DNA of 64,000 bases from Gammaproteobacteria bacterium (GCA_011682695.1 JAACED010000005.1:2488-66487), one strand, 5' to 3'. Counted from the first letter of the stretch, positions 942-57,739 are shown. The notes: generated by a model not told the origin, from the sequence alone. Made by a program: numbers and translations.

Positions 942-2909
942 TCAACTACTGGTTGAGGCCCTGTCGAGATGGCGAGCAAGCCACGTCTGGACCTCTTGAT
1001 ACCAGTGCAGAGAGTTCTGCGGCTTGAGGATCCAGTGGTTCTCGTCGGGGTAGTAGACAAGGCGCGCCTCCACTCCCTTGGCTTTCAGGATCCCGTAGAA
1101 CTCCAGGCCCTGTGTCGATGGAACGCGAAAGTCGCGCTCCCCGGCGATGACGAGTGTGGGAGTCCGGCAGCCTGCGGTGTGCCGTGCGGGGTTCCAGCGG
1201 TCCACCGTGTCGGGGTCTTCCCAGTAGTCGGCACCGTAGGAGCGGATCCTGCCCATCGTCACGTCCGACGCATACATGCCCGGCAGGTCGGTGACCGCCG
1301 CGTGGGCGACTGCACACGCGAATCGGTCGGTCTGTGTCGTGAGCCAGGTCGTCAGATAGCCGCCGTAGGAACCTCCGGCGATGGCCATGCGGTCCTCGTC
1401 GAGAAACCCTCGTTCGAGGAGGTGGTCGGTCGCCGACAGGATGTCCTGCGTGGGCAGATCGCCCCAGGCGCCTTGAATCGATGTCGCGAAGTCCTGGCCC
1501 CAGGAAGTCGATCCGTGGAAGTTGACCAATGCAACGACATAGCCGGGTGCCGCGAACGTATGTGCGTTCCATCGGAAGTGAAACGTGTCTCCGAAGATGC
1601 CATGGGGGCCCCCGTGGATCATATGCACGAGTGGCCAGCGGCGAGCTGGATCAAAGTCGGGCGGGTAGACGACGAACGCCTGGATCGGGTCGCCGTCAGC
1701 TCCTTCGAAGGTGATTTCTTCGACATTGCCCAGCCGGAGGTCCGCCATCGACTCTTCGGTGAAGTGGGTCAGTCGTTGGCTTCCGGATATGTCGACACTC
1801 ACGACTTCCGGGGGATGGCTGAGGTCCTGGAGGGTGGCGAACAGTGTGTCCGTGCCGGGCACCGGATGGCCAAAGGTCCCTCCTCGAGCAATCTGTCGTG
1901 GTTCCACGTCCTTCGGCGGCATCTGGTACAGATTTACCCGTGCGCGGTCCTCCGCGGTGAACACGAGGTCTCCTTGCGCGGTGAACTCCCATGAGGATGC
2001 GGAACGGTCCCAAGCTTCCGTGAGGACATGGTGTTCGTCCGGCTGCCGGTCATACCTCACCAGCCGAACGCGGTCCGCGTAGTAGTCGATTTCGCGTTGC
2101 ATTCCGTAGACGATGAGGGTTCCGTCCGGGCTGTAGCGGGGCCGAAGCTCATGCCCGGTGCCGTCAGGAGTGAGACAGCGGGTCGCTCCGCCGGCGACCG
2201 GGGTTGTGAAAACGGCGGTGCGAGGCCGGTCATGCGGCGGTGCACTCGTGTCGGCCGAGAAGGCGACTTCCCTTCCGTCCGGCGAAACATCGTAGGAGTC
2301 GGCTTCCTGATCCCAGCTCCACCACCGTTGCGAGTCGGGGATGAGGTCTCGGATCTCTCGCGAGGCGAAGTCGAACAAGAAGATGTGCGGAACGCTTCCA
2401 TCGGTCAGCCAGCGGTCCCAGTAGCGGTAGAGGCGGTCTTCGGTCACGTGGGCCTTGACCTTCGCATCCTCGCGCCGATCCCGCAGCTTCCGGGTGTCTT
2501 CGATGGTCGGTGCCTCGGTGAACAACGGCGAGAGGAAGAGCAGGCCGTCACCGTCGGGCATCCACTTGGGTCCGAGCACACCGAGCGGCATGTCGGTCAG
2601 GCACTCGGCCTCGCCTCCGTCGAGTGGCATCACATAGAGTTGCGCCGGCTCGTCGGGGCTCTCTGAGCGAACGAAGGCGATGCGGGCGCCGTCGAGCGCA
2701 ATGGCGGGGGACTTCGCATCGTGTTTCGGATTGGTGAGCAGCTTCGGCTCTCCGGGAGTGAGCAAGTACAGGCTGGTCGTCGCCTTGTTGTCGTCGAGAT
2801 CGAATCGCGTGACGGGAACCACGACAATCCCGCCGTTTGCGACCGGGTCGCCGACGCGGGGAAGTGTCCAGAGGTCGTTTGCAGTGATGGAACGTGTCAT
2901 ATCGAGCAA
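942..2909 (-). CDS. S9 family serine peptidase (prolyl oligopeptidase / acylaminoacyl-peptidase-like, beta-propeller plus alpha/beta-hydrolase)
   Basis: 655 aa; N-terminal WD/propeller-like repeats, C-terminal GGSYGG nucleophile elbow and Asp/His region typical of S9 peptidases. Confidence 0.85.
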   Translation of the reverse strand: MLDMTRSITANDLWTLPRVGDPVANGGIVVVPVTRFDLDDNKATTSLYLLTPGEPKLLTNPKHDAKSPAIALDGARIAFVRSESPDEPAQLYVMPLDGGEAECLTDMPLGVLGPKWMPDGDGLLFLSPLFTEAPTIEDTRKLRDRREDAKVKAHVTEDRLYRYWDRWLTDGSVPHIFLFDFASREIRDLIPDSQRWWSWDQEADSYDVSPDGREVAFSADTSAPPHDRPRTAVFTTPVAGGATRCLTPDGTGHELRPRYSPDGTLIVYGMQREIDYYADRVRLVRYDRQPDEHHVLTEAWDRSASSWEFTAQGDLVFTAEDRARVNLYQMPPKDVEPRQIARGGTFGHPVPGTDTLFATLQDLSHPPEVVSVDISGSQRLTHFTEESMADLRLGNVEEITFEGADGDPIQAFVVYPPDFDPARRWPLVHMIHGGPHGIFGDTFHFRWNAHTFAAPGYVVALVNFHGSTSWGQDFATSIQGAWGDLPTQDILSATDHLLERGFLDEDRMAIAGGSYGGYLTTWLTTQTDRFACAVAHAAVTDLPGMYASDVTMGRIRSYGADYWEDPDTVDRWNPARHTAGCRTPTLVIAGERDFRVPSTQGLEFYGILKAKGVEARLVYYPDENHWILKPQNSLHWYQEVQTWLARHLDRASTSS

Positions 2910-2946
2910 TGTAGTGGTGTGCGCGGCGGTGACGACCCGGCCGGGT

Positions 2947-4449
2947 CTACTCGCCGCTCCTCCTCCGCTTTCCCGGCTTGCGTCGGGTGGCGCGGTTCAA
3001 CGCCTGCATGCGCTGCTGCACCTCGGCAGTGACCGCGCCGGGAATCGCGCGCCACTGCCAATTGCCAGACGTGGTCCCGGGGCGGTTCATTCTGGCTTCT
3101 GTCGGGAGGTCGAGCAGATCCTGAAGCGGGGCCAGGGCGAGAACCGATCTCGACTTCCAAACAGCCCACATGCTGTCCCATGCGATTTGGCTGTCGTCGG
3201 TCCCCAGATACTCCAGCACGAATGAACGGCGGGCTTCATCGAGGCTGTCGAACCAGCCTCTGGTCGTGTCGTTGTCATGTGTTCCCGTGTATGCGACGCT
3301 ATTGCGCGGGTAGTTGTGGGGGAGGAACTCGCTGGTCCGGTCCGTGTCGAATCCGAACTGGAAGACTTTCATCCCGGGGAATCCCAAGAGATCGCGCAGG
3401 GCGGGCACTCGGGGATCCAGTTCGCCGAGATCCTCGGCGATGACCGGGAGCCTTCCGAGTTCTCGCTGGATGGTCTCGAAGAAGGTCTCTCCGGGTCCGT
3501 CGACCCACCTTCCCTTGGTCGCATCGCGTGCTCCACCGGGCACCTCCCAGTAGTTCACGAATCCACGGAAATGATCGATGCGGACGATGTCGACAAACCG
3601 AAGCACCGCGCGGAAACGCTCGGTCCACCACGCGAATCCGGTCCTTTGGTGCTCGTCCCAGCGATAGAGAGGATTGCCCCACAATTGGCCGGTCTCGGAG
3701 AAATAGTCGGGTGGCACTCCTGCCTGGAAGGCGGGCTCTCCAGTTTCGGTCAGCTGGAAGAGTTGACGGTTCGCCCACACGTCGGCGGAATCACCGGCGG
3801 CGAAGATCGGGATGTCTCCGATGATGCTGATGCCAAGCGAACGTGCACGGCGACGAAGCGCACTCCACTGACGAAAGAAGAGGAACTGGGCGAACTCGTG
3901 ACGGCGAATCTCAGTCGTGTAGGCCAGGGACGCCTTTTCCATCTGCGCCGGATCGCGATCTCTCAACAAGGGAGGCCACAACGTCCAGGAGTGACCGCCG
4001 TAGAGATCCTTCAGTGTCATGAAGAGGCCGTAATCGCCGACCCAATCCCGATGCGCATGGCGGAAGCGTTCGAAGTCGTCTTGTAGCGCACCGATGTTGT
4101 CGAAGGCGTGATTCACCAAGTCGCGTTTCCACGTGATGACAGCTCCGTAGTCGACACGATCGACGGGAAACGCAGGGGCGTTCTGGATCTCTGCTTCGTC
4201 GATCAGGCCTTCGGCAATGAGACTCTCGGGGCTGATCAGGTTGGGATTCCCGGCGAAGCTCGAGAAGCTTTGATATGGGGAGTCGGCGTAACCGGTCGGA
4301 CCGAGCGGGAGAACCTGCCACAGAGCACAGCCCATCTGCGTCAGCTGGTCGAGCCACGCATGTGCAGAAGGCCCGATGTCACCGATGCCGGGCGGGCCGG
4401 GAAGGCTCGTGGGGTGGACGAGCACGCCTGATGATCGGGTGAAGTGCAT
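2947..4449 (-). CDS. malQ: 4-alpha-glucanotransferase (amylomaltase, GH77)
   Basis: 500 aa; N-terminus SGVLVHPTSLPG and overall similarity to MalQ/disproportionating enzyme. Confidence 0.85.
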   Translation of the reverse strand: MHFTRSSGVLVHPTSLPGPPGIGDIGPSAHAWLDQLTQMGCALWQVLPLGPTGYADSPYQSFSSFAGNPNLISPESLIAEGLIDEAEIQNAPAFPVDRVDYGAVITWKRDLVNHAFDNIGALQDDFERFRHAHRDWVGDYGLFMTLKDLYGGHSWTLWPPLLRDRDPAQMEKASLAYTTEIRRHEFAQFLFFRQWSALRRRARSLGISIIGDIPIFAAGDSADVWANRQLFQLTETGEPAFQAGVPPDYFSETGQLWGNPLYRWDEHQRTGFAWWTERFRAVLRFVDIVRIDHFRGFVNYWEVPGGARDATKGRWVDGPGETFFETIQRELGRLPVIAEDLGELDPRVPALRDLLGFPGMKVFQFGFDTDRTSEFLPHNYPRNSVAYTGTHDNDTTRGWFDSLDEARRSFVLEYLGTDDSQIAWDSMWAVWKSRSVLALAPLQDLLDLPTEARMNRPGTTSGNWQWRAIPGAVTAEVQQRMQALNRATRRKPGKRRRSGE

Positions 4450-4497: not shown

Positions 4498-5721
4498 TCA
4501 ATCCGCGATGATCACGATCTCGAGTTCGTTTCTGGCCGCCGCCAGCGACGTCTCGACCTCGAGAGGAGTGCCGGCTCTGGCGAAGAGAAAGCCGAGATGG
4601 CGTGCCCCGTCGGGGAGCGGGATCACGTACGTACCCGGTGGGATCGTGACGGCAACCTCGGTGATGCCGGGCACAGCCCTGGCTGCGTCGAGACCGTTGA
4701 CCGTCCGCAACGTTCCCGCGCTCGGCACAGGGACCGCCAGCACTCCGGAAGCGATGTCTTCACGGTGGGTGTTCACGCGCATCCCCAGGGCATGCCTGAG
4801 CAGCAGATCCTCCAAGGTCGTTCCGAGGAGTCCGAAGTGCAAAGAACGGCCGCGCAATCCTCCGATCGAGCGAGCTGCGACTTCGATGATCGCCACCCGA
4901 CTCCCGTGGATGCGAAGCTTGGCGTGGATGGGACCTTCCCGTAGTCCCAGCGCCCGGACGGCGCGCGTCGCCACCGTCTCGACCTCCTCGAGGATCTCGG
5001 GGTGGAGTCTCGACGGTGTCACGAGCATGGTCTCTGCGAAGTACGGGCCGTCCATCGGCTCCGGCTTGTCGAAGAGAGCCAGGACACGTAAGGCTCCTTC
5101 GACGAGGAGGCCTTCCAGGACGATCTCCCTGCCCGGGATGTAGCGTTCGATGAGCACCAGTTCATTCGGATTCTGACCGGCAACGGCGAGTATACGACGG
5201 ATTCGTTCGACGACAGGCGGCACCTGAAGCGGGTGGTCGACTCTGATGACGCCTCTGCTTCCAGAGAGCGAGAGGGGCTTGAGTACGACCGGAGTTCCCA
5301 CGACTTCCGCAAGTGCGACGGTGTCGCTCGATGGCGCCGCGAGTTCGAAGGTGGGCTGTGGAACTTCGTGTTCGTTCAGCACGTTTCGCAGGATCGCCTT
5401 GTTGCGCGTGGCGGCAACCGATGCAGGGTGATTGTGCGCCAGTCCGAGCCCCTGGGAAGCAATCGCCGCGATCATGGCTCCGGCATCGTCCACCGGGATC
5501 ACGGCGTTGATCGGGCGACGGTCGCCCGCCTGGACGATGGCCTCCGCCGAACGGTGCAGGTCCCGAGAGTCGATGTGGATGAATCCCTCGCTGCTCATCG
5601 AGGCGTGACGCTTCTCGGAGGCGATGACCAGATCGACTCCCAGTGATCTGCCGGCCTCGATGAAGTCGTCGGCCCGGTAGGTTCCGGTGGGGAGAATGAG
5701 GACCGCTGTGCTCACGGGCAC
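4498..5721 (-). CDS. ATP-grasp domain protein (unknown ligase)
   Basis: 407 aa with ATP-grasp-type central region (VVLKPLSLSGSRGVIRV..., ERYIPGREI). The substrate cannot be inferred. Confidence 0.6.
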   Translation of the reverse strand: MPVSTAVLILPTGTYRADDFIEAGRSLGVDLVIASEKRHASMSSEGFIHIDSRDLHRSAEAIVQAGDRRPINAVIPVDDAGAMIAAIASQGLGLAHNHPASVAATRNKAILRNVLNEHEVPQPTFELAAPSSDTVALAEVVGTPVVLKPLSLSGSRGVIRVDHPLQVPPVVERIRRILAVAGQNPNELVLIERYIPGREIVLEGLLVEGALRVLALFDKPEPMDGPYFAETMLVTPSRLHPEILEEVETVATRAVRALGLREGPIHAKLRIHGSRVAIIEVAARSIGGLRGRSLHFGLLGTTLEDLLLRHALGMRVNTHREDIASGVLAVPVPSAGTLRTVNGLDAARAVPGITEVAVTIPPGTYVIPLPDGARHLGFLFARAGTPLEVETSLAAARNELEIVIIAD

Positions 5722-6465: not shown

Positions 6466-7143
6466 ATGGACTGGCCGCGCACGGTCGAGGATCTTCGCGA
6501 TGTGCAGACTCGGCTTGGTTCGACACGGCCGTGTGTCTTCCCCGTGCCGGAGACCCCGTCCGTCGGCGGCGTGTTCGTCTGCTTTCCGAGAGGTGGGATG
6601 GGAGCAGGCGCTGCCGGTGACCCGGGATGGGCGGCGGCCGTGGTGATGCAGGGCAGGCGACGTGCTCAGGCTGCAACGGTGAGGGGCTCTGCGGGTGCCG
6701 CCTACCGGCCGGGATTCCTCGCCTTGCGTGAAGGGCCTCTCCTCGCAGCAGCCGTGGATGCTCTCGAGCGAAAGCCCGACGTGCTCATCGTCAACGCGAC
6801 CGGTCGTGACAATCCTCGCCGTTGTGGACTCGCCGTGCATCTCGGGGCCGTGCTCGACATTCCCACCGTCGGAGTTACGCACCGACCGCTCGTGGCGTCC
6901 GGGGCGTGGCCGCAGGAGGGGCGTTGGTCCAGATCCCCACTGATGTTGGGAGGAGAGGTCGTCGGGTACTGGTTTCGGACCAGTGTCGGGACACGTCCCG
7001 TATGTGTGCATGCCGGATGGCGAACCGGCCCGGACCTTGCCGTGGAGATCGTGAGGCTCGTGACGGGTCGGTTTCGTACTCCGGAACCCTTGCGTCGGGC
7101 GAGAACGGCTGCTCGTCGTTTTCGCACCGCACAACGTTTCTGA
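6466..7143 (+). CDS. nfi: Endonuclease V (deoxyinosine 3' endonuclease)
   Basis: PGFLALREGP and NPRRCGLAVHLGAVLDIPTVGVTH match the conserved EndoV motifs (PYIPGLLAFRE / ...HLG...DIPTIGVAK). Confidence 0.8.
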   Translation: MDWPRTVEDLRDVQTRLGSTRPCVFPVPETPSVGGVFVCFPRGGMGAGAAGDPGWAAAVVMQGRRRAQAATVRGSAGAAYRPGFLALREGPLLAAAVDALERKPDVLIVNATGRDNPRRCGLAVHLGAVLDIPTVGVTHRPLVASGAWPQEGRWSRSPLMLGGEVVGYWFRTSVGTRPVCVHAGWRTGPDLAVEIVRLVTGRFRTPEPLRRARTAARRFRTAQRF

Positions 7144-7157
7144 TTCTGCTCGGTGAC

Positions 7158-7619
7158 CTATCCCTGTGGTGTCGGTATCAGCGCCTCTGCAATGCAGTTC
7201 ACGAAGTTCTCGATCGTGCCCTCTGCAACTCGATGGAGGAGCGCATCGTCGAAGATCTGTCCGATGGACCCCAGAGGGACCGTGTACGAGCCGCTGAGTC
7301 TGATCTGGGTCGTGTCCTTCGAGACCCGCAGCAAGTGCAGATCTGCCCGCATCATGGGGAAGAGCATCGGCGCACCCGTCGCTCTCCAGGAGATGGGAAT
7401 GATCAGGCTGTCCGGTCCCCGCTCAGGCGTAGCCGTCTCCAACACGACGGTCTTCGCAATCACCGGTGCAGTCTTTCCCACGCCGATTCTCGCTCGCAGT
7501 TCCTCGCCATTGCGGTACGCCTCATGAGCCCATCCGCCGAGTTCGCCGAGCACCGGCTCGAGTCGTTCGACGGCTACGTCGAAGGGCACAGGGACTTGCG
7601 AGAAATAGGAGACGAACAT
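7158..7619 (-). CDS. Hypothetical protein, SRPBCC/polyketide-cyclase-like (approx. 153 aa)
   Basis: Internal ATG of the long minus-strand ORF 7158..8453. Only this C-terminal part lies outside the well-supported + strand hydrolase gene and it has a balanced amino-acid composition. The fold assignment is weak. Confidence 0.4.
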   Translation of the reverse strand: MFVSYFSQVPVPFDVAVERLEPVLGELGGWAHEAYRNGEELRARIGVGKTAPVIAKTVVLETATPERGPDSLIIPISWRATGAPMLFPMMRADLHLLRVSKDTTQIRLSGSYTVPLGSIGQIFDDALLHRVAEGTIENFVNCIAEALIPTPQG

Positions 7620-7727
7620 GGACCACCTTTCGGTGCGCCAGAGTCTTGCAGGCCCGTGGGAGTACGACCAGGGTCGAACGGCCCTTCTCGCCACAGGTAG
7701 TGTTCGACGTGGACGAGGAGGATTCCC

Positions 7728-8522
7728 ATGCGAGAGGTCACGTTTGATGGCGCCGAGTGCCCTGTGTACTGCCGGGTGTGGGAGCCTGCGGACCGCGTCG
7801 ACCGGATCGTCCTGATCGTTCACGGCTACGCCGAACACGGCGGGCGCTACGAGCACGTAGCGGACGCTCTCGTTGGCGAAGGTGCGGCCGTATATGCGCC
7901 CGATCACATCGGACACGGTCTGTCGGGCGGAGAGCGTGCTCTGATCAGCGATTTCGAGCATGTTGTGGATGACCTGCATCACGTTGCCGCAATGGCTCGA
8001 AGCGAACATCCCGGCGTTCCGCTCATCGTTGTCGGGCATTCCATGGGGGGGTTGATCGGTGCGCGGCTCGCAGAGCGCTATCCAGACGAGGTGGCGGGCG
8101 TTGTGTTCATGGGCGCGGTGATTGGAGATTGGGATTGGGCGAGACAGGCCCTCGAGGATCCGTCGATGATGGCGACACCGTCGGATGTCGCCGGCATGTC
8201 CGGTGATCCGGCGGCCCAACGCTCCTATGCGGCGGACCCGTTGGTGTATCACGGTCTGTACAAGCGGCCGCTGCTCGTCGCGGAGGTGCAGGCACTCGAC
8301 CGGTTCAACGCCGAGCTGGATCGTCTCACGATGCCGATCTTGTTCATGCACGGGACCGATGATCCGTTCGTGCCGTATCAGACCTCCTTGGACGCGGTGC
8401 TCCGCATGCCGTCCACGGATGTGACGATCCGGCTGTTCAAGGGTGATCGGCACGAACTCGTGAACGAACGTGACCGTGCCGAGGTCATCGCCGAACTCTG
8501 CAGGTTCGTTGCCCGGTTCTGA
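7728..8522 (+). CDS. Alpha/beta hydrolase (lysophospholipase / monoacylglycerol-lipase-like)
   Basis: 264 aa; HGYAEHGGRY, GHSMGG nucleophile elbow, C-terminal Asp/His region. Confidence 0.8.
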   Translation: MREVTFDGAECPVYCRVWEPADRVDRIVLIVHGYAEHGGRYEHVADALVGEGAAVYAPDHIGHGLSGGERALISDFEHVVDDLHHVAAMARSEHPGVPLIVVGHSMGGLIGARLAERYPDEVAGVVFMGAVIGDWDWARQALEDPSMMATPSDVAGMSGDPAAQRSYAADPLVYHGLYKRPLLVAEVQALDRFNAELDRLTMPILFMHGTDDPFVPYQTSLDAVLRMPSTDVTIRLFKGDRHELVNERDRAEVIAELCRFVARF

Positions 8523-8528
8523 GCCGTC

Positions 8529-9305
8529 CTACGTCCAGCCTTGCAGGTTGAAGAGCGCCGTGAGCCTGTCCGACATGTTCGGAGCAACTGTCCCCAGCCA
8601 CGCATAGACGCGTCCGCTGAAGGCGGGGACGTAGACCTCCGAGCGAGGCCGTCGGATCGCCGAGAGCACGGCGGTCGCCACCTTCTCGGGTGGCATCTTC
8701 TTTTGAATCTTCGGGACACGCAGTCCTTCGAAGGGAGCGGTGTCCACTCTTCCGGGGTAGATGCTCGTCACGGCGATGCCGCGGGCGGCGAGTTCCTGGC
8801 GGGCAACGCCGGCGAAACCCGAGAGAGCGTGCTTCGCCGCCGAATATGCCGCTTCCAGAGGGACGCCCTTCTTTCCGTCGAGGGAGTTGACGAATACCAA
8901 CTGACCGCCCTGCTCCAGGAACGGGAGCGCTTCGAGGGCAGTGTTGAGAGCCCCGAAGTAGTTCACCGCCATGACGGCGTGCCAATCCGCAGCGGTGGTT
9001 GCTTCGACAGGAGCTTTGAGCCAGATTCCGGCGTTCGCCACCACGACGTCGATTCGTCCCCATCGTTGCACGGTACGTTCGATCAGGCCGCGGACCTGGT
9101 CGCGATCGGTGACGTCGATGGGGACGGCGAGCGCCTGACCTCCGCTTGCGGCGATCTCGGCCGCCAGGTCTGTGAGGAGTGCCTCTCTGCGGGCCGCAAC
9201 GGCCACGTTGGCGCCGTGGGCACCGAGGGCGAGTGCGGTCGCCCTGCCGATCCCCGAAGAAGCGCCGGTGACGACCACGACGCTGTCTCGAATAGCCCGC
9301 CTCAT
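8529..9305 (-). CDS. SDR family NAD(P)-dependent oxidoreductase
   Basis: TGASSGIG Rossmann motif, NAG, YxxxK catalytic motif (YSAAKHAL). Confidence 0.85.
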   Translation of the reverse strand: MRRAIRDSVVVVTGASSGIGRATALALGAHGANVAVAARREALLTDLAAEIAASGGQALAVPIDVTDRDQVRGLIERTVQRWGRIDVVVANAGIWLKAPVEATTAADWHAVMAVNYFGALNTALEALPFLEQGGQLVFVNSLDGKKGVPLEAAYSAAKHALSGFAGVARQELAARGIAVTSIYPGRVDTAPFEGLRVPKIQKKMPPEKVATAVLSAIRRPRSEVYVPAFSGRVYAWLGTVAPNMSDRLTALFNLQGWT

Positions 9306-9358: not shown

Positions 9359-10570
9359 ATGGGTTTTCGACAGTATCCGACGAGCGATGCGAACTACGAC
9401 GCATACGGCACGTACATCTCTCCCGGGAAAGTGGCGCTGTATCGTCAACTGGAACTCGGTCTGGTGATGGGATCCAGGGATGGGGCCGTCTTCACGGACG
9501 CCTACGAGGGAACCCGACTCTACAACTGCCACTGCAACGGCGGTGTCTTCAATCTCGGCCACAGGAATCCGCGCGTCCTCAGCGCCGTTCGCACTGCGTT
9601 GGACTCGTTCGATATTGGGAATCATCACCTCATCTCCGGGATGAGAGCCAGGCTCGCGGAGCGGCTCGCTGCAACGACCGGCGGTGCGTTGTCCGGTGTG
9701 ATCTTTGGCGTGGGAGGAGGAGAAGGGATCGATCTTGCCCTGAAAGCGGTTCGAGGAGTGACCGGTCGACAGAAGATCGTTTCTGCGAAAGGCGGCTACC
9801 ACGGGCATACGGGGCTTTCCGTGGCAGCCGGTGATCCCGAATACCGTACCCCGTTCGGCCCGAACCTTCCCGGCTTCGTACAGGTCCCATTCGACGATAT
9901 CGATGCGCTTGTCACCGAGGTCGATTCCGACACTGCCGCGGTGCTGCTCGAGCCGGTGCCGGCGACCCTCGGCATGCCGATTGCAGCCGATGGCTACTTC
10001 GCATCCGTTGCAGAGCTCGTGAACTCCAGAGGCGCTCTCCTGGTGCTCGATGAAGTGCAGACGGGGCTTGGTCGGACGGGAACCATGTGGTGCTATCAGC
10101 AACTCGACGTCGTCCCGGACATCCTCGTCACGGGAAAAGGGTTGAGCGGAGGGATCTATCCGATCAGCGCCACCTTGATGAGCCCCGCGGTGTTCTCTTT
10201 CTTCGACGAGCTGCCGTTTGTGCACCTCTCCACCTTCGGCGGGGCGGAACCGGGATGTGCAGCCGCTCTCGAGGTCTTGGATATCGTCGAGACACCCGGC
10301 TTTCTCGACCGTGTACTGGAGCTTGCCGAACGCTTCCGAGCCGGACTCTCCGGTCTGCCTTTCGAACTCCGACAGCGAGGGATGATGATGGGGCTGGTCT
10401 TCCCCGCGTCCAATGCGGCCGTGATGGCCGCCAAGATGTTCTTCGACGCCGGCGTCTTCGTCGTGTGGGCCGAGAACGATCGTTCGGTACTGCAGTTCCT
10501 TCCGCCACTGATCCTCGGCGATGAGGAAGCCGACGACATCATCGCTCGCGTGCGGGGAATCTTCACATGA
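9359..10570 (+). CDS. Class III PLP-dependent aminotransferase
   Basis: 403 aa; DEVQTGLGRTG and surrounding fold-type I class III signature. The substrate is unknown. Confidence 0.85.
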   Translation: MGFRQYPTSDANYDAYGTYISPGKVALYRQLELGLVMGSRDGAVFTDAYEGTRLYNCHCNGGVFNLGHRNPRVLSAVRTALDSFDIGNHHLISGMRARLAERLAATTGGALSGVIFGVGGGEGIDLALKAVRGVTGRQKIVSAKGGYHGHTGLSVAAGDPEYRTPFGPNLPGFVQVPFDDIDALVTEVDSDTAAVLLEPVPATLGMPIAADGYFASVAELVNSRGALLVLDEVQTGLGRTGTMWCYQQLDVVPDILVTGKGLSGGIYPISATLMSPAVFSFFDELPFVHLSTFGGAEPGCAAALEVLDIVETPGFLDRVLELAERFRAGLSGLPFELRQRGMMMGLVFPASNAAVMAAKMFFDAGVFVVWAENDRSVLQFLPPLILGDEEADDIIARVRGIFT

Positions 10571-11460
10571 GCCTCGAACCTGTCCGGGTCGACGACCTGG
10601 AAGTATTGGAAGAACGATTCCAGAAAGCCTTCGCCACGGGCCACGCCGAAGGACTCGATGTCATCGGGTATGGAGAGATCACCAGTGTCGTGGCCTGGGC
10701 CGGATCCGATGGCATGGTTGCAGCAAAACGGTTGCCGACCTTTCGGGCCGGTGAAGGAGTGGAAGCGTATCTCGCCCTTCTCGAGGACTATCTGACAGGG
10801 TTGCGGGCCGCCGATGTCTCAGTCGTGCCAACGTCGTTTCAGACGCTCAGGCTCGACGGTCGAGATGTCGCCGTGTACCTGGTACAACCGTTGCTCTCGC
10901 CCGAGAACGTCGGACACGCTTATCTCAGAGGTGCTACGGAGCAACAGGCCGTCCGTCTCTTCGACCGTGTCTTCGAAAGGACCGAGGCGGCCATCGGCGC
11001 CCGGATCGGGATCGATGCGCAGATCTCGAACTGGGCGGTAGACGGGGATGACTTGGTCTATTTCGACGTTACGACGCCGCTTCTGAAAGATGACCATGGG
11101 GTCGACCGGATCGATGTGGATATCTTCCTGGCGTCACTGCCCTGGGCTCTTCGGGGGATCGTGAAGCGGTTTCTCGTGGTGGGGATCATCGAAGACTACT
11201 TCGATGTCCGTACGACCATCCTCAATCTGGTCGCGCAGTTCCACAAGGAACGGCTCATCTCACTCATTCCACTGGCTCTCGAGCGGGCAAACCGCAGGCT
11301 GTCGGATCCCATCGGTGCGGATGAGGTCAAGCGGTACTACGGGAGCGATGCTCGAATGTGGGAGCTCCTGCAGCGTCTTCGTAGGATCGACCGGTGGTGG
11401 CATCACAAAGTCCGCCGGCGTCCGTATCCGTTCCTGTTGCCCGGCAAGATCGATCGTTGA
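10567..11460 (+). CDS. Hypothetical protein with possible protein-kinase-like fold (Gly-rich loop IGYGEITSV, VAAKRL, DGDDLVYFD)
   Basis: 297-aa ORF whose ATG overlaps the aminotransferase stop (ATGA). No confident family assignment. Confidence 0.55.
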   Translation: MSLEPVRVDDLEVLEERFQKAFATGHAEGLDVIGYGEITSVVAWAGSDGMVAAKRLPTFRAGEGVEAYLALLEDYLTGLRAADVSVVPTSFQTLRLDGRDVAVYLVQPLLSPENVGHAYLRGATEQQAVRLFDRVFERTEAAIGARIGIDAQISNWAVDGDDLVYFDVTTPLLKDDHGVDRIDVDIFLASLPWALRGIVKRFLVVGIIEDYFDVRTTILNLVAQFHKERLISLIPLALERANRRLSDPIGADEVKRYYGSDARMWELLQRLRRIDRWWHHKVRRRPYPFLLPGKIDR

Positions 11461-13064
11461 TGAGAACCACGACCGGGGTCGTGTTCCCTCTGGGCATCGC
11501 CGCCGCCGTGTTGCTCGTCGGTGCATGTGCACCGGAGGCATCCGAACCTGTCCGGTCGTCGCCCGAGACCCGGGCTCCGACGGCTTCGACCACCACAACC
11601 TCCACGCCTCCAGCCATGACGGCCGTCACAGTGACCTCGACGACCTCGACGACGATCACTACGCCGGAGACGACACGGCGTCCCACCATCCGCATCGCGA
11701 TGGTTGGTGACGTCATGCTCGGCCGTGGTCTCTCGCGCATCGTTCGGAACGACCCGCAGAGCATCTTCGAAGATGTGCGATTCGTCCTGTCGGACGTGGA
11801 TATCGCCGGGGCGAACATGGAGTCGCCGTTGACGAATCGGCCTCACATCGCACTCAACCCGTACGCGCTCGAGGCGAGGCCGGAGACGGCCGGGCTGCTC
11901 GCCGCGGCGGGTTTCGATGTCCTGTCGGTCGCGAACAACCATGCGGGTGACGCAGGGCGGGCATCGGTGATCGATAGCGTCGAAGCGATCAATGACGCCG
12001 GGATGCAGGCGGTCGGTGGCGGGGTGAACCTGAGCGAAGCCGTGCGGCCGGTCATCGTGGAGGTGCGAGGGCTTCGTGTGGGGTTCCTCGCATTCGATGC
12101 GACGAGGGCGGGTACTCCGGCGAGTGAGAATCGGGCGGGCATCGCACCGTGGGACGACGAGACGGTTCGTGCCGCAGTGACAGGACTGCGTCCCTGGGTC
12201 GATCTGCTCGTAGTGGCCGTGCACGGCGGGGTCGAGTATCGCACGTGGACCGACCCGCACATGGCAGCGCTTGCAGAGGAACTCAGCGGCTGGGGCGTCG
12301 ACGTGGTGTGGGGGAGTGGGCCACATGTCGTCCAACCCGTCTTCCTGATCGATGGTGCACGACCGACCGTGGTGGCGACGAGTCTCGGCAACTTCCTCTT
12401 CGACCAGGGTGATTCCGCGACAAAGGTGGGGGCGATCCTCGAGGTCCTTGCCGACGCCGACGGTGTCGTCGCGTACCGGGTAGCGACGGTCCAGCACCGT
12501 GACCGGCGGGTGCATTTCGACCAGTGGGACGACCCAGACGGTGACGCGGCGATGCTCGGCACCGAATGGTGGAGCCTCGGCCGCGGTTTCGAACCCCTCG
12601 AGCCCGACGAGCCCGGGGATCTCGAGCGGTTCCGGTGGGGTGATGTGGTCGACGCGACTCGAGGCGACGTGGACGGTGACGGGAGGGATGAGATCGTCGT
12701 GGCGTTCCGCCGGCCTTATCAGGAGAACCCGGTGAACGCACTGTTCCCCGATAGGCCGTGGGCCGACGTGTTGGGACGCAGCGCCCACATCGGTGTGTTT
12801 CGAGCCTCGGATCTCGAGCCCGAATGGATCGCGGGAACCCTGTTCCGACCCGTCAGACGGGTCGTGGCATGCGACGGAAGCCTTGCCGTCGGATACGGCT
12901 CGGACGAGACGGACGGTGTCGTGGCGTCTGGAGCGTGGCGGTGGCGTGGGTTCAGTTTTCTCATCGCTCCGACCTTGGATCGCGATGCCGCGCTCGGGTG
13001 CGCGGATATCGATGGTGATGGTCGAACGGACCCGATCCTGTTCAGTAGACCGGGAACTCCATGA
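11460..13064 (+). CDS. CapA/PGA_cap family metallophosphatase-like lipoprotein with Thr/Ser-rich linker and C-terminal FG-GAP/VCBS-like Asp-rich repeats
   Basis: Start ATG overlaps the previous stop (TGATG). Lipobox LLVGACAP. CapA core (IAMVGDVMLGR...ANNHAGD...VAVHGGVEY). C-terminal DVDGDGRDE / DIDGDGRTD repeats. Confidence 0.75.
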   Translation: MRTTTGVVFPLGIAAAVLLVGACAPEASEPVRSSPETRAPTASTTTTSTPPAMTAVTVTSTTSTTITTPETTRRPTIRIAMVGDVMLGRGLSRIVRNDPQSIFEDVRFVLSDVDIAGANMESPLTNRPHIALNPYALEARPETAGLLAAAGFDVLSVANNHAGDAGRASVIDSVEAINDAGMQAVGGGVNLSEAVRPVIVEVRGLRVGFLAFDATRAGTPASENRAGIAPWDDETVRAAVTGLRPWVDLLVVAVHGGVEYRTWTDPHMAALAEELSGWGVDVVWGSGPHVVQPVFLIDGARPTVVATSLGNFLFDQGDSATKVGAILEVLADADGVVAYRVATVQHRDRRVHFDQWDDPDGDAAMLGTEWWSLGRGFEPLEPDEPGDLERFRWGDVVDATRGDVDGDGRDEIVVAFRRPYQENPVNALFPDRPWADVLGRSAHIGVFRASDLEPEWIAGTLFRPVRRVVACDGSLAVGYGSDETDGVVASGAWRWRGFSFLIAPTLDRDAALGCADIDGDGRTDPILFSRPGTP

Positions 13065-15287
13065 CCGGTCGTGTCGTTCTACAATCCCGAGGGGGGAAGA
13101 TCGTGCGAACGTTCGCGGCAATCGTCGTCATTGCTCTTTTCGTGGTGGCGTGTACGAGTGGCTCTGAGGCTCCGACGACCTCTGCGGCCGTGTCGACATC
13201 GACATCGACATCGACGTCCGCGCATCCGAGCACGACCACGTCCGCGCATCCGAGCACCACCCCGTCCACGGCCCCCGTCGCCGACGCGACCCTCACCGTT
13301 CAGCAGCAGCCTCGGTCGCTGAGCCCGTTCGCCGGGTACACGCTGGTTCCGATGGACGAGGCAGGCACCTATCCGGGCCCTGCCTGGCCGACATCGCTCG
13401 ATGGTGTCGTGATCTCGCCGGAAGCCGAGTACCTCGTCGGGCGGCCCGAGGCTGCACGGGCACTCACCGATCACGGTTTCGTCGTCGTACCGGGCTACGC
13501 GGCGCTCTTCCAGGATGTCTACGCGCAGGCGCCCTACGACAACCACGCGATTTTCGTGACCACCGACGCCGGCTACCACGTTCTTCATCTTGCCTTCAGC
13601 AAGGTGCTGCGTGACACCGAGCAGAACTCCCTCCTCCCAGTGCTCGAAGATCTCGTCACCCGCTCGGTCGCCGCCGCCCGAGGCCAGGCGGCAGCACTCG
13701 CAGGCACGGGCCAGGCGGACCAGGCGTCGCGAGTCGCGCAGCTCTTCGAAGCGGCAGCGGTGCTGCTCGGTCTCGACGTCGGGCCGGTCGGCCCGCTTGC
13801 AGACCAGGAGGTCGGCCTTGCCACCGAAGCGGCGCAGATGACCACGTCGCCGATCACCGGCTTCGCCGCATGCAATCGAACGCAGTCGCCACGCGGGTGT
13901 GTCGACTACAGCCTGTTCAAACCCAGAGGTCATTACACGCGCAACGAGGATCTCGAGCGGTATTTCCGGGCGATGTCGCTTGTCGGGCAGGAAGGCGCAT
14001 CATTCGTCGCCGGGATGGACGGCGACACTCCGGTCGTCGACGAACCGTCGATGCAGTTCGCCCTCCTTGTCGTCCGGGCGATGCAGGCGGACCCGGTTAT
14101 CGAGCAGGACTGGCGGCTCCTCTACGAACCTACTGCGTTCATGGTCGGCATGGCCGACGACTACACGCCGTTCGAGCTCGCAGCAGTCGCCGTAGCGGTC
14201 GCCGGAGACCGGTGGTCGACCGACGATTTCGCCGACACCGGCCTCCTGCAGACCGTCGGGGGGAAACTGCTCGCGACCCGTGCGGTTGGAATCAATCCGG
14301 AGGCGGCGTCGGTCCGCATCATGGGAGCACGGTTCGTCATCGATTCGTAGATTCTCGACCAGCTCGCCTGGCCGAACGTCGGAAAGGAGCCGCCGGTGAA
14401 ACGACGTGTGTACGTGTCGCCGCTCGACGTCGCCGCGACATTCGATTCCAATCTGGCGCTCGGCATCCAACGACAGGCGGGCGAGGACCGGTACCTGCAC
14501 TATGAGGACCAGATGGCCGCCATGCGCGAACTCGTCTCTGTACGTGCGGAAGACGACTGGGCCGCGACCGTATATGACGCGTGGTTGTCTGCCCTCCAGC
14601 CGGTGTGGCGTGAGCACGGTGACGCATTCCCGCCGTTCATGCGCAACGACGCCTGGACCGCGAAGGACCTCCAGACGGGCCTCGGGTCGTACACGGAGCT
14701 GAAGCACGACACGATCCTCTACGCGAAACAGGAATTCGCCGCGGAGGGCGGCGGGGACTGGACCGAGCTACATCCGCGACACTGGGTCGAGCCGGATCCG
14801 GTCGCATTCGAGAGGATGTCGCAGGTCGCGGCGCTGCTCCAGAGCGGCCTGGCCGAGCGGGGCCATCAGCACCGAGGACAACGACTGGCTCGGTGGGGTC
14901 GGGTCCGCCATGGAAGGCCTCTGGTATGCCTCGTCGGACGCCGACCCCAAGACCGGGGCGGTCGCGTCGGGGGATTCTCGCGACGCCCTCATTGCGGACA
15001 TCGGACGGGCGTCTTTCGCGTATCTGGAGATCGGCACCGGGGTGATCGACCAGATCCTCGTCCTCGTCCCCGACGACGCCGGACGGTTCCAGGTGGCAAT
15101 CGGCGGCGTCTACTCGTACTACGAGTTCTGGCGCCCCGAAGAGCAGGGCCGCCTCACCGACGAGGAGTGGTGGAAGCTCCTCGACGACGGTCGTGCACCG
15201 GACCGGTCGGCGCCGATGATCTTGCCCGATCCGGATGACGGTGAGCGTCACCGTCCCGCCTGGCAGGCCGCATTCCTGGTGCCCTGA
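13061..15287 (+). pseudogene. Large secreted lipoprotein gene (about 740 codons) interrupted by an in-frame TAG (14348..14350) and a +/-1 frameshift near 14855..14865
   Basis: Three track ORFs (13061..14350, 14396..15238, 14910..15287) read as one continuous protein if the TAG is read through and one base is adjusted in a CGGGGCC run. Lipobox VVACTSG with a Ser/Thr linker. Family is uncertain (possibly DUF3160-like). Confidence 0.5.
13192..13262 (+). repeat. Coding tandem repeats in the lipoprotein linker: (ACATCG)n followed by a 24-nt direct duplication (GTCCGCGCATCCGAGCACNACC x2)
   Basis: Read directly. Encodes STSTSTS and SAHPSTTT/SAHPSTTP. Confidence 0.6.
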
Positions 15288-15616: not shown

Positions 15617-16279
15617 ATGACGCCCGATTTCACCCTGATCGATCAAGGGGGCAACCCGTGGACACTCTCGGAGCATCTCGACAGCGCCGTCGTGCTGCTC
15701 TTCCTGCGCGGTGACTGGTGACCGTACTGCAACGGCCAGCTGGTCAGTCTGGCATCACGATACGACGACCTACTCGCCGCCGGGGGTCGGATTGCCGTGA
15801 TCAGCGTCGACACCCCACAACAGCATGCTGCACTGATCGAGAAACTCGGGCTGCGCTTCCCGATGTTGTCCGATCCCGACCGCAGTCGAGCCATCAGGCC
15901 GTACGGGGTTGCCGACCACAAGGATGCCCGCAATATCGCCCGGCCCGCCTTCGTCATCGTCACTCCGCAAGGAGATGAGGTCGAGAGGCGGTTGTCGGGC
16001 GACTTCGCCGATCGTCCTACCGAGGACGAACTGATCGCCGCTGTCGGCAAGCTTGGGATGGCCCCGGTCGAAGCGGAGCCGATCGCACTCGGTCCGGCGT
16101 CTCCCGGCCCGAATGCGATGCCGGTCGCTGCCATGGAGCCGTACTATCGGGGAGCGAAGTTCGCCGTCACCGCAATGCGGTTGCGACATCCCGAATTGGA
16201 GGAGGAGGCGAAGCGCTACATCGACGAACTCGACCGTTACATCGAAGCCGTGCGCGACCTCAAGAGGTCCAACGGCTGA
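15617..16279 (+). CDS. Candidate selenoprotein: peroxiredoxin/redoxin (AhpC-TSA, thioredoxin-fold) family with in-frame TGA (15719..15721) at the first position of a W-U-P-Y-C redox motif
   Basis: Contiguous reading from ATG 15617 gives MTPDFTLIDQGGNPWTLSEHLDSAVVLLFLRGDW-TGA-PYCNGQLVSL...FPMLSDPDRSRAIRPYGV... This runs in frame into the track ORF 15797..16279. The Prx-like motifs (FTLxD, VVLxF, FPxLSD...YGV) flank the TGA. An RBS-like GGAAGAGAG lies upstream. Confidence 0.6.
15735..15753 (+). promoter_or_regulatory. Candidate bacterial SECIS-like hairpin (GCCAG-CUGGUCAGU-CUGGC) 13 nt downstream of the UGA
   Basis: 5-bp GC-rich stem with a 9-nt loop containing GGU. Position is compatible with bSECIS spacing. 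Not folded computationally. Confidence 0.3.
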
Positions 16280-16287
16280 CAGGGGGG

Positions 16288-18237
16288 ATGATGGACAAGA
16301 CAGCCTGGAGGAAGCTCGACATCGGTGACCTGGCCGTGGGCCGGGTTACAACGGTGATCGTCGAAGGCCGTGCTCTGGCCGTGAGCCGCACCGAGTCCGG
16401 TTGGGGAGTACTCGACAACCGTTGTCCGCATCAAGGGGGTCCACTCGGCGACGGAGAGATCGAAGGTCCGTACCTGCTCTGTCCCTGGCACGGCTACGAG
16501 TACGACCCTGTCACCGGCGAGCCGCCGGCAGGGTTCAGCGATGTCGCCACCTGCTATCGCCTCGAGGAACGCGACGGCGGCCTGTACGTCGAGCTTCCCG
16601 TCCCTTCCGCGCAGCCGACCCTGATGGACCAGATGGTCGATGTCATGACCGGGTGGGGCGTGGACACGGTGTTCGGAATGGTCGGTCATTCCAATCTCGG
16701 GCTTGCCGACGCTCTGCGAAGGGCCGAACAAGACGAGCGCCTGCGGTACATTGGGATCCGGCATGAGGGCGCGGCTGCCTTCGCGGCTTCTGCCTACGGC
16801 AAACTGACCGGCCGCCCCGCAGCCTGCTTTTCGATCGCCGGGCCGGGAGCAACGAACCTGTTGACGGGCCTATGGGACGCAAAGGTCGACCGTGCACCGA
16901 TTCTGGCACTCACCGGACAGGTGCAGACCCAGGTGCTGGGCCCGGGAGCCTTCCAGGAGGTCCCGCTCACCGAAGCGTTCGCGGCCGTCGCCAACTTCAG
17001 TCAGACGGTGCTCGTACCCGACAACGCGACGGAGTTGATGGCGCTCGCCCTCAAACATGCGCTGGTCGAGCGCGGTGTCGCCCATCTCGTGTTCCCAGAT
17101 GAAGTGCAAAGCCTGCCGGGCCTGAGCGAACCGCCGGAGCGACTGCGAACCGGACGGGTCGCGTTCGACGGGATCGCGCCGCCGAAAGAGGAACTGTCGA
17201 GGGCGGTCGACCTCCTCGAAGGCGCTCAGCGGCCGGTGATCATCGCCGGAAACGGGGCACGCCAGGCTCGCCGGCTGGTGATCGAGCTTGCGGAACACAT
17301 CGATGTACCCGTGATCACGACGTTTCGTGCCAAGGGTCTCATTGGTGATGACCACCCATTGGGGGGCGGTGTGGTGGGGCGCTCGGGCACACCCATCGCT
17401 TCTGCGCTGATGGCGCGAGCGGATGCCCTGCTGGTCCTCGGTGCATCGTTCTCGAACCATTCGGGTATCGCGACATGGGTGCCGACCATCCAAGTCGATT
17501 TCGATCGCATGACCCTGGGCAAGTTCCATCCCGTCGACGTCCCGATCTGGGGTGAGATCGGGCGGACGCTCGAGCTCCTGAAGGGGGCGCTGTCACCGGT
17601 TGATCGTCCCGAGCAACGCGCCACGGTCGAACTCAAGCGGACCAGGTGGCGCGAGGAGACCGTGCGAAGAGCCGCCATGACTGACGAGTCCGGCCGTATG
17701 CATCCGGCCCGCGTATTCACCACCCTGTCCGGGCTGGTGCCTACGGACGCGGTGATCTCTGTCGACGTCGGCAACAACACCTACGCGTTCGGTCACTACT
17801 TCGAGGCGAAAGGAGGCCAGGATGTTCTCATGTCCGGCTACCTGGGGTCGATCGGCTTCGGTTTCCCGGGTGCAATGGGGGCGTGGGCCGCAACACGTGG
17901 CACCAACCGCAAAGTGATCTCGGTCTCTGGAGACGGAGGCTTCGGCCAGTACCTCGCCGAGTTCACCACCGCCGTGAGGTACGGGATGCCGATTACCCAC
18001 GTGCTGCTGAACAACGACGAGCTGGGCAAGATCAGCAGGGAGCAGATCGGTGCGGTGCGGCCGGTGTGGCAGACGTCGCTGGTCAATCCCGATTTCGCCG
18101 AGTACGCGCGCCTATGTGGTGGGCGGGGATTCAGGGCCGACGATCCTGCCGACCTGGAAGCCGTGTTCTCGGAGGCACTCGCCGTCTCCAATGGACCATC
18201 ACTGGTCGAGGTCACCGTCTCTGCGCTCGACGTCTGA
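16288..18237 (+). CDS. Rieske [2Fe-2S] domain fused to a thiamine-diphosphate-dependent enzyme (acetolactate-synthase/pyruvate-oxidase-like)
   Basis: N-terminus CPHQGGPL...CPWHGYEYD (Rieske CxH...CxxH). The remainder has ThDP-enzyme Pyr, central and PP domains (GDGGF...NN). Confidence 0.8.
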   Translation: MMDKTAWRKLDIGDLAVGRVTTVIVEGRALAVSRTESGWGVLDNRCPHQGGPLGDGEIEGPYLLCPWHGYEYDPVTGEPPAGFSDVATCYRLEERDGGLYVELPVPSAQPTLMDQMVDVMTGWGVDTVFGMVGHSNLGLADALRRAEQDERLRYIGIRHEGAAAFAASAYGKLTGRPAACFSIAGPGATNLLTGLWDAKVDRAPILALTGQVQTQVLGPGAFQEVPLTEAFAAVANFSQTVLVPDNATELMALALKHALVERGVAHLVFPDEVQSLPGLSEPPERLRTGRVAFDGIAPPKEELSRAVDLLEGAQRPVIIAGNGARQARRLVIELAEHIDVPVITTFRAKGLIGDDHPLGGGVVGRSGTPIASALMARADALLVLGASFSNHSGIATWVPTIQVDFDRMTLGKFHPVDVPIWGEIGRTLELLKGALSPVDRPEQRATVELKRTRWREETVRRAAMTDESGRMHPARVFTTLSGLVPTDAVISVDVGNNTYAFGHYFEAKGGQDVLMSGYLGSIGFGFPGAMGAWAATRGTNRKVISVSGDGGFGQYLAEFTTAVRYGMPITHVLLNNDELGKISREQIGAVRPVWQTSLVNPDFAEYARLCGGRGFRADDPADLEAVFSEALAVSNGPSLVEVTVSALDV

Positions 18238-57303: not shown

Positions 57304-57739
57304 TGTGACGGCCAAACCCGGGACGCCGTTGCGACACTCCAACTTCGCCAAGCGAATCTGGCGGCCGGCCGTCGAAGCGGCGGGCGTCCCACCAGGGCTG
57401 CGCATCCACGACTTGAGACATACCGCTGTCGCGTTGATGATCGCAGCAGGCGCTCATCCTGAGCACATCAAACGTCACCTCGGGCACAGCTCGATCACCG
57501 TCACCATGGACCTGTACGGTCACCTGTTCCCGTCAGAGGCGGACACCATCGCGGAGCGTCTCGATCAGATGCTGCGCGAGTCTCAGACGGACAAACGACG
57601 GACAAAACCGCTCGAACTGACGTCGTGGAGCGGCCATGAACCCCCTGGTCAGGCCCCTGACCAGGACGTATTCGGGTGGGCCCGGCAGGACTCGAACCTG
57701 CGACTAACGGATTATGAGTCCGCTGCTCTGACCAACTGA
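57304..57739 (+). pseudogene. Tyrosine recombinase (phage integrase) C-terminal fragment whose 3' end overlaps the tRNA
   Basis: HDLRHT...HSSITVTMDLYGHL (catalytic His/Arg/Tyr box) only. The N-terminal two-thirds are absent. Confidence 0.6.

Follow-up and report, generated by a model that had tools for sequence, protein, structure and literature searches.

The question raised by this locus is whether three overlapping genes, located at positions 9359 to 13064 of a 64,000-nucleotide stretch of DNA, serve one common pathway. The stretch was deposited under the name Gammaproteobacteria bacterium (GCA_011682695.1, JAACED010000005.1:2488-66487) and is called the window in the following; all coordinates are positions of the whole window and all genes of the operon are located on its plus strand. 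A sequence-only reading had proposed a translationally coupled operon for a class-III aminotransferase, a kinase-like protein of 297 aa and a secreted lipoprotein of the CapA family, which together would make up an envelope pathway with no described precedent. Our analysis indicates that the operon very probably consists of two independent modules that have been placed side by side. Module A (9359-11460) would be cytoplasmic and combines a class-III-fold enzyme dependent on pyridoxal phosphate (PLP) with a protein of the Pfam family DUF6206, both translationally coupled and co-inherited across phyla, and we are fairly confident that they form a functionally coupled kinase/PLP-enzyme pair. Module B (11460-15287) would be extracytoplasmic and contains the CapA-like lipoprotein together with a lipoprotein of the DUF3160 family, a pair that other Actinomycetota and Acidimicrobiia have kept without module A. 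A specific mechanism, in which a kinase step is followed by a phospho-lyase step, is suggested by analogy and is put forward as tentative, and for the statement as a whole, i.e., two modules, coupled pair and mechanism, we see the chances as evenly balanced.

The main argument for two modules comes from the gene neighbourhood in related genomes. With one genome taken per GTDB species, 589 relatives were obtained; the best 80 of these loci were compared with the window proteins by tblastn, and the counts given here refer to them. A gene for the PLP enzyme is located directly upstream of the DUF6206 gene and on the same strand in 60 of these 80 loci, and the genomes bearing the pair belong to the Acidimicrobiia, other Actinomycetota, Myxococcota, Acidobacteriota (Holophagae and Thermoanaerobaculia) and, in one case, to a metagenome-assembled genome (MAG) of the Planctomycetota. 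In 39 of 55 related loci, from several phyla, there is a start codon available that overlaps the stop codon of the PLP-enzyme gene, in most cases by four bases. Furthermore, a natural fusion protein of 738 aa (P0322) unites Aminotran_3 and DUF6206 and retains the diagnostic motifs of both halves. Conserved adjacency, overlapping start and fusion point in the same direction, and the comparison of genomes thus strongly supports a joint action of the PLP enzyme and DUF6206. The CapA-like gene follows another pattern. About 55 genomes contain the pair of PLP enzyme and DUF6206 without CapA nearby, and besides the window CapA and DUF3160 are located after DUF6206 in L001, L002, L004 and L006 only, all of them Acidimicrobiia. 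The neighbourhood is therefore conserved with respect to the first two genes, but the third one belongs to it only in a small clade of Acidimicrobiia.

The arrangement of the genes in the window is as first described, at least for the three open reading frames (ORFs). The ORF list contains 9359-10570 (403 aa), 10567-11460 (297 aa) and a third frame, which is listed with a GTG at 11394 and comprises 534 aa when counted from the ATG at 11460 (11460-13064). Both stop/start overlaps were also recovered by reading the sequence directly: in the ATGA at 10567-10570 the start codon of the DUF6206 gene (10567-10569) overlaps the stop codon of the PLP-enzyme gene (TGA, 10568-10570), and in the TGATG at 11458-11462 the stop codon of the DUF6206 gene (11458-11460) shares one base with the ATG of the CapA-like gene (11460-11462). 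An AAGGAGG ribosome-binding site is located 5' of the PLP-enzyme ATG at 9359. Upstream of the CapA-like ATG at 11460 no Shine-Dalgarno sequence is evident, which fits reinitiation coupling, and such coupling is plausible at the DUF6206/CapA-like junction. The genes are tightly packed and probably co-translated. This tightly packed run is real, but it does not end after three genes, as a fourth co-directional gene for a DUF3160 lipoprotein follows after 13064. An ATG of this gene at 13061 overlaps the stop codon of the CapA-like gene (ATGA), and the GTG at 13103, behind GAGGGGGGAAG, is the likelier start. Four-base overlaps of stop and start codons are the commonest type of junction in bacterial operons and overlaps alone therefore carry little weight. 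The feature that exceeds chance is that the junction of PLP enzyme and DUF6206 has been conserved, and not the presence of overlaps per se.

The CapA part of the locus is ordinary. Starting from the ATG at 11460, the protein begins with a canonical lipoprotein signal, MRTTTGVVFPLGIAAAVLLVGAC, with the lipobox cysteine at position 23, and Pfam assigns it to PGA_cap (189 bits, 1.1e-55) with a weak C-terminal FG-GAP match (2.5e-05), so that both its family label and its lipoprotein label hold. A linker rich in Thr, Ser and Pro (residues ~24-75) leads to an alpha/beta catalytic domain of metallophosphoesterase fold (~77-345) and an all-beta C-terminal domain (~350-530), which carries DxDGDG motifs and two invariant cysteines (C471 and C514). 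Judged by its metal-ligand motifs (GD, NxE, NNH, HGGxE and GPH) the protein is a member of the PGA_cap family; D84, N119/E121, N159-N160-H161, G256-G257/E259, H289, C471 and C514 are invariant in 45 CapA orthologues and H255 is kept in at least 90%. The AlphaFold2 model reaches a pLDDT of 88.9 with a disordered linker, and its best Foldseek match is the lasso-peptide epimerase MslH (8gq9, 2.7e-20), followed by 5'-nucleotidases. The PGA_cap domain with conserved metallophosphoesterase-type metal ligands is shared with MslH and with CapA/PgsA of poly-gamma-glutamate synthesis, whereas the window protein differs from both in being a lipoprotein with an extra all-beta C-terminal domain, and its identity to MslH is only 19%. 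In contrast to the CapBCA/PgsBCA systems, neither CapB (Mur-ligase-like) nor CapC was detected among the 18 ORFs scanned with Pfam, which represent most predicted genes between ~170 and 21,000, or in the contexts of four distant CapA orthologues, and the constant partner is DUF3160 instead. The missing CapB and CapC had been regarded as an anomaly. This view is not supported, because a CapA-family protein standing alone is the norm for this large orthogroup (852 homologues at E<=0.001, the best 120 of them all ~440-565 aa long with PGA_cap as main Pfam domain) and the nearest solved structure is MslH; accordingly, their absence does not indicate a novel pathway. It is likely that standalone CapA-family lipoproteins are misread as capsule genes, while their conserved partner is really DUF3160.

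The distant CapA orthologues mentioned above (47-58% identity, on long contigs) are followed downstream by DUF3160 in all four cases and accompanied by DUF6206 in none. In L082, small ORFs and a fragment of an unrelated class-III aminotransferase (36% identity) are located between CapA and DUF3160, and in L081 the synteny with the upstream Hydrolase_4 gene of the window is kept, with other genes in the position of module A. The DUF3160 gene of the window itself (13103-15287, plus strand) is matched by Pfam in two pieces (1.9e-49 and 9.6e-43). Comparison by tblastn with the L001 orthologue, which is intact (743 aa), shows that its frame is interrupted by a TAG (14348-14350) at the position of a Tyr and that ~32 codons are deleted, with a frameshift, near 14860. 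Either the gene is a pseudogene or the assembly is in error here. The closest relative of the locus (L085, 86% nucleotide identity) has a PLP enzyme and a DUF6206 protein that are 91% and 88% identical to those of the window; its CapA (6900-8264) lacks residues ~378-465, DUF3160 is gone and the Rieske/TPP region is also absent. In L005 (70% identity) an unknown gene occupies the slot of CapA and DUF3160. The region between DUF6206 and RNase H is a site of frequent gene turnover within the clade. A constant DUF3160 partner without DUF6206, together with the unstable slot in the clade, argues for CapA/DUF3160 as a separate extracytoplasmic pair, which would have joined module A from behind in this lineage only and now seems to be decaying there.

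What kind of protein is DUF6206? The 297-aa protein matches Pfam DUF6206 (PF19709) with 137 bits against a cut-off of 30.4 (8.9e-40) over profile positions 2-271 of 271. Apart from this family of its own, the profile search gave nothing in Pfam at E<=1, including no match to APH, and NCBIfam has no DUF6206 model. We found 860 DUF6206 cluster representatives at E<=1e-3 among 1.84 billion in a profile search, nearly all with a length of 290-320 aa; at 50% identity the family comprises ~860 clusters from at least five phyla, Streptomyces and myxobacteria included. Conservation was read from an alignment of 44 homologues with 43-89% identity. Invariant positions are G34-x-G36-E37, K54 (in A-x-K-R-L-P), Q107, G148-x-D150-x-Q-x-S154-N155-W156 and D167 (in Y-x-D-V-T-T-P). 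The Gly-loop (G34-Y-G36-E37 in the window protein), the VAAK motif (K54) and the YFD motif (D167) that had been pointed out before are accordingly invariant or nearly so, but the catalytic loop is D150-x-Q-x-S-N155-W and not D-x-D. In the predicted secondary structure the Gly-loop is located between beta1 and beta2, Lys54 ends beta3, D150 to N155 follow alphaE and D167 follows beta8, and G34xG36E37, K54, D150, N155 and D167 are the putative catalytic residues. The C-terminal lobe is helical with many invariant Arg and ends in a conserved tail, YPFLLPGxIxR.

The AlphaFold2 model of DUF6206 is of high confidence (pLDDT 92.8, pTM 0.90). Foldseek against the PDB returned 85 matches at E<=1e-3, and the best 50 of the 85 are all protein-kinase-like folds, among them MSK1, TGFbR1, AAK1/GAK, WaaP, PRPK/Bud32, VPS34, CK1 and PknB. 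On the sequence level no such relationship is visible: the DUF6206 profile gave only chance-level matches to PDB sequences (a segment of a plant K+ channel), and hhalign of the 44-homologue alignment against APH(3')-IIIa returned a probability of 0.1. With WaaP (6dfl), PRPK/Bud32 (6wqx) and the RIO kinases DUF6206 shares the small bilobal fold of ~300 aa, the Gly-loop, the beta3 Lys, D-x-x-x-x-N and the metal-binding Asp, and its D-x-Q-x-S-N-W presumably resembles the D-L-S-x-x-N of RIO/Bud32. It differs from these kinases in the absence of a detectable sequence relationship, with TM-scores of 0.33-0.44, and has the Arg-rich helical C-lobe and the C-terminal YPFLLPG tail as features of its own. 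Model and motifs support the assignment of DUF6206 to a very divergent branch of the protein-kinase-like superfamily, the phosphotransfer site of which looks intact, in line with the kinase-like label it had been given, and kinase activity would be expected.

The partner enzyme is encoded at 9359-10570. Its aminotransferase label agrees with Pfam (Aminotran_3, 1.3e-69), its best match in the PDB is the putrescine aminotransferase PatA (4uox, 9.5e-60), followed by acetylornithine and ornithine aminotransferases, and the aminotransferase domain of PigE is also among the best family matches. All scores in NCBIfam are far under the equivalog cut-offs; the putrescine aminotransferase equivalog NF008570, for instance, is not reached (229 bits, cut-off 612). 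In an alignment of 56 orthologues adjoining DUF6206, the Schiff-base Lys260 (VTGKGLSGG) and the Asp that binds the pyridine nitrogen (D231, LDEVQTG) are kept at >=95%, and GHRNP is conserved. By the Aminotran_3 match, the PLP Lys and the pyridine-nitrogen Asp, the protein can be placed in the class-III fold, and in fold, PLP Lys, DEVQTG and GHRNP it is like PatA/YgjG and the acetylornithine and ornithine aminotransferases. The difference lies in the substrate-binding residues. Gln379 (VLQFLPPL) is present in 56 of 56 orthologues where transaminases read xIRxxPPL; in the HMMER alignment to PatA it stands opposite the Arg of TIRIEPPL, and a Thr stands opposite the loop Glu. Likewise, the EPIQGEGG loop of the transaminases is replaced by EPVPATLGM in the DUF6206-linked orthologues, so that QGEGG becomes PATLG throughout the orthogroup. 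Ornithine and GABA aminotransferases use this Arg to bind the alpha-carboxylate of 2-oxoglutarate or glutamate, with the Glu as the switch partner of the Arg. The combination of Arg and Glu partner, which characterizes the amino-acid-linked transaminases (PatA, ArgD, OAT and GabT), is absent from the PLP enzyme. Because of the invariant Gln379 and the replaced Glu partner, we infer that the orthogroup is not a conventional amino-acid-linked transaminase.

This Arg is also missing from solved class-III enzymes with functions other than transamination. The human phospho-lyase ETNPPL (6tor) has NVLKIKPPM and ESMQSCGGQ and the bacterial phospho-lyase 5g4i has NVLKMRPPL, i.e., both have Lys in place of the transaminase Arg, where the window protein has Gln; the class-III entry 5m4b, with alpha-amino-epsilon-caprolactam racemase (2zuk) as the closest listed relative, reads NVLEMTPPL. 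Absence of the Arg is necessary for membership in the phospho-lyases and insufficient for it. A paralogous class-III enzyme in L086 was considered as a control for the Arg position, but has a different C-terminal motif and was uninformative.

How could both proteins of module A work together? Pairs of an amino-alcohol kinase and a class-III phospho-lyase are known, namely HYKK/PHYKPL, ethanolamine kinase/ETNPPL and the 1-amino-2-propanol kinase/phospho-lyase in the RMM microcompartment locus of Mycobacterium smegmatis, and to speak of a combination with no described precedent was too strong. Following this model, DUF6206 would phosphorylate the hydroxyl group of a small molecule bearing an amine (an amino alcohol or similar), and the PLP enzyme would act on the resulting phospho-amine; the simplest reaction would be a 1,2-elimination that releases phosphate and ammonia, as in the phospho-lyases for ethanolamine phosphate, 5-phosphohydroxylysine and 1-amino-2-propanol phosphate. 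Class III includes phospho-lyases (PMC8154272), and the RMM1 locus contains an aminotransferase, a phosphotransferase and a short-chain dehydrogenase/reductase (SDR) (PMC4207490). The window resembles these systems in the genetic coupling of a protein of kinase fold with a class-III PLP enzyme without the transaminase Arg, and an SDR gene also adjoins the pair. On the other hand, the partner kinases of the known phospho-lyases belong to the APH/choline-kinase family, whereas DUF6206 is a Pfam family of its own without profile similarity to APH(3')-IIIa, and the known phospho-lyases are AGXT2-like, whereas the PLP enzyme falls into the branch of putrescine and ornithine aminotransferases. Module A combines an Arg-less class-III PLP enzyme with a cryptic kinase-fold family and resembles the known two-enzyme pairs, with both components being different.

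Further indications for the type of substrate come from the neighbours of DUF6206 in other genomes. A gene for an Ntn amidohydrolase of the C45/AAT type with an N-terminal Cys is located directly downstream of DUF6206 in 14 loci from Myxococcota, Acidobacteriota and some Acidimicrobiia; the protein has ~395 aa and begins with MCD (e.g., L057 6863-8050, L043 6863-8050, L024 6927-8114), and the gene is absent from the window. In five loci a sulfatase-family gene is located upstream of the pair (e.g., L075 351-2690, L012 425-2734, L072 3174-4718), and in one case DUF6206 is fused to Sulfotransfer_3 (P0336). Near the fused gene in L086 we also noticed a sulfotransferase (2763-3446). As far as gene content can tell, sulfate esters are a recurring theme around DUF6206, and the Ntn hydrolase and sulfatase neighbours are a hint to the release of amine-alcohols from conjugates. 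The DUF6206 genes of Streptomyces, Actinocrinis and Actinospica are found next to KAS III, KAS II, an ACP-ACP-alpha-oxoamine synthase, a PPTase, a nitroreductase-like protein and a LuxR regulator (KAS, ketoacyl synthase; ACP, acyl carrier protein; PPTase, phosphopantetheinyl transferase). The ACP-ACP-alpha-oxoamine synthase has a RedN/PigH-like architecture, and the whole looks like an uncharacterised amino-lipid biosynthetic cluster with an amino-ketone or amino-alcohol as product. This cluster was seen in L050-L054, L058, L061-L063, L069, L071, L073, L074, L076, L077, L011, L040 and L041; a small ORF in it was guessed to be an ACP candidate. A vicinal amino-alcohol as substrate would reconcile all of these contexts. 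A possible connection to bacterial sphingolipids, based on a DUF6206 gene beside an Spt-like alpha-oxoamine synthase in Streptomyces aurantiacus, was dropped as a claim: bCerS, the ceramide synthase described from bacteria, belongs to the acyltransferases, and the papers examined contain no link between it and DUF6206.

Several points weigh against the picture of two modules with a kinase/phospho-lyase pair. A literature search returned no papers on DUF6206 and no biochemical data for any member, the kinase assignment is one from fold and motifs, the TM-scores of the Foldseek matches are modest (0.33-0.44, with E-values of ~1e-4), and the alphaC helix (65-81) has no invariant acidic residue, position 66 being Glu or Asp in most homologues and not in all. 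DUF6206 also occurs without this PLP enzyme in 14 genomes of Streptomyces and five of Actinocrinis/Actinospica, and its presence in other gene contexts shows that its role is not tied to one partner. Regarding the PLP enzyme, the sequence is nearer to putrescine, acetylornithine and ornithine aminotransferases than to the known phospho-lyases: PatA, ArgD and OAT are the best PDB matches, while 6tor and 5g4i are absent from those at E<=1e-30, and the idea of a lyase is therefore one by analogy. Loss of the Arg would also fit a racemase, or a transaminase working with non-carboxylate partners. Finally, CapA-DUF3160 is kept behind module A in five of seven members of the clade with 50-100% DUF6206 identity, and some functional link between both modules is conceivable.

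The last point leads to the possibility of a single envelope pathway as originally suggested, in which a cytoplasmic aminotransferase and a kinase make an aminated or phosphorylated precursor that the CapA-like protein (and DUF3160) installs or processes on the envelope. It would explain why stop/start overlaps link all genes and why the order of aminotransferase, DUF6206, CapA and DUF3160 has been retained in L001, L002, L004, L006 and the window even where DUF6206 identity falls to 50%, and the intact metallophosphoesterase-type site of the CapA-like protein could act on a phosphorylated product. However, a common pathway is difficult to reconcile with the ~55 genomes that have the first pair and no CapA nearby, with the four out of four distant CapA contexts that contain DUF3160 and neither DUF6206 nor an orthologous aminotransferase, and with the variability of the slot after DUF6206 (other genes in L005, a truncated CapA in L085 and the DUF3160 pseudogene in the window), and we consider it very unlikely. 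In the same way, we do not expect the role of DUF6206 to be the modification or scaffolding of the PLP enzyme, be it as a pseudokinase, as a regulatory protein kinase or as an enzyme that uses ATP in another way (AMPylase or ligase). Most of the top structural neighbours are protein kinases, an alphaC Glu is not invariant, and tight coupling and fusion would also be expected of an obligate complex, but the model shows no sign of an activation segment or a substrate-docking lobe. A short bundle of helices makes up the C-lobe, as in small-molecule and lipid kinases such as WaaP and PRPK/Bud32-like proteins, which are also among the matches, and the very different proteins that accompany DUF6206 in the Streptomyces cluster and the sulfotransferase fusion P0336 speak against a regulator dedicated to one enzyme, which makes this explanation unlikely.

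More serious is the reverse order of events within module A, although we regard it as doubtful. A true transaminase without the Arg would aminate an aldehyde or ketone on a lipid, sugar or polyamine-like scaffold (compare PigE), and DUF6206 would then phosphorylate the product or a neighbouring hydroxyl group, comparable to aminoglycoside and amino-sugar kinases. Such a biosynthetic order agrees with the best family matches of the PLP enzyme, which are transaminases (putrescine aminotransferase and the PigE domain), with the retention of all PLP-binding residues, and with the biosynthetic-looking cluster in Streptomyces, where KAS III, KAS II, ACP-ACP-alpha-oxoamine synthase and PPTase would yield an amino-ketone or amino-alcohol lipid. 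Yet a transaminase needs an amino donor, which is normally an amino acid bound via the missing Arg, and outside Streptomyces the neighbours look catabolic (the C45/Ntn amidohydrolase in 14 loci and the sulfatase in five). The kinase-then-phospho-lyase mechanism is kept here as the tentative proposal for module A.

Taken further, DUF6206 might be the founder of an unrecognised family of small-molecule kinases, which together with the Arg-less PLP enzyme would form a widespread two-step pathway for amine-alcohols; the substrate would possibly be freed from N-acyl or O-sulfate conjugates by the neighbouring Ntn amidohydrolase and sulfatase, and Streptomyces would have recruited DUF6206 to a fatty-acyl/alpha-oxoamine-synthase cluster. 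This extended proposal is speculative and rather doubtful in its entirety. If it were true, the recruitment in Streptomyces would mean that Gram-positive bacteria have a sphingoid-like lipid phosphate built on an amino-alcohol, DUF6206 would add a branch to the kinase superfamily and come with a partner enzyme open to testing, and the Arg-to-Gln signature would mark a whole orthogroup annotated as aminotransferases as probably having a different chemistry. In any case, the DUF6206 pair, as an uncharacterised module, is of modest interest and a good lead for enzyme discovery that alters no major open question.

The SDR gene mentioned above is located at 8529-9305 on the minus strand (Pfam adh_short, 2.9e-53), divergent from the PLP-enzyme gene and separated from it by 53 bp. 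Its position is kept in L001-L004 and L085 only, which are the closest relatives within the Acidimicrobiia, and it does not belong to the conserved core. The PADLOC defence models gave no match for the three operon proteins, Rfam at gathering threshold detected no riboswitch or leader in the window and one tRNA only, and a scan for promoters and terminators gave nothing exceeding the shuffled expectation. Further upstream, a gene for an ATP-grasp protein similar to L-amino-acid ligases (ATP-grasp_4 and LAL_C2) is located at 4498-5721 on the minus strand, 3.6 kb from the operon; it is syntenic in L001-L003 and L085, and we found no evidence linking it to the operon.

Downstream of the operon, the window encodes a protein of 649 aa (16288-18237) with the unusual architecture of an N-terminal Rieske [2Fe-2S] domain and a complete thiamine pyrophosphate (TPP) enzyme with N, M and C domains. 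Upstream of its gene is a small AhpC/TSA-like ORF (15797-16279), and both genes are also present in L005.

Regarding the source of the DNA, an identical CapA protein (P0121) is deposited under a MAG named "Gammaproteobacteria bacterium" with the locus tag GWP04_01445. All close relatives of the locus are MAGs of Acidimicrobiia and the GC content of the window is ~63%, and therefore the source MAG has probably been assigned to the wrong taxon. Finally, the tRNA-Met at 57675-57750 (minus strand) overlaps the end of an ORF in 57305-57750 that encodes RIHDLRHT, a motif which we assume to be associated with tyrosine recombinases, and the GC content falls to 0.58-0.60 at 50-54 kb. These features may mark the edge of an integrated element.

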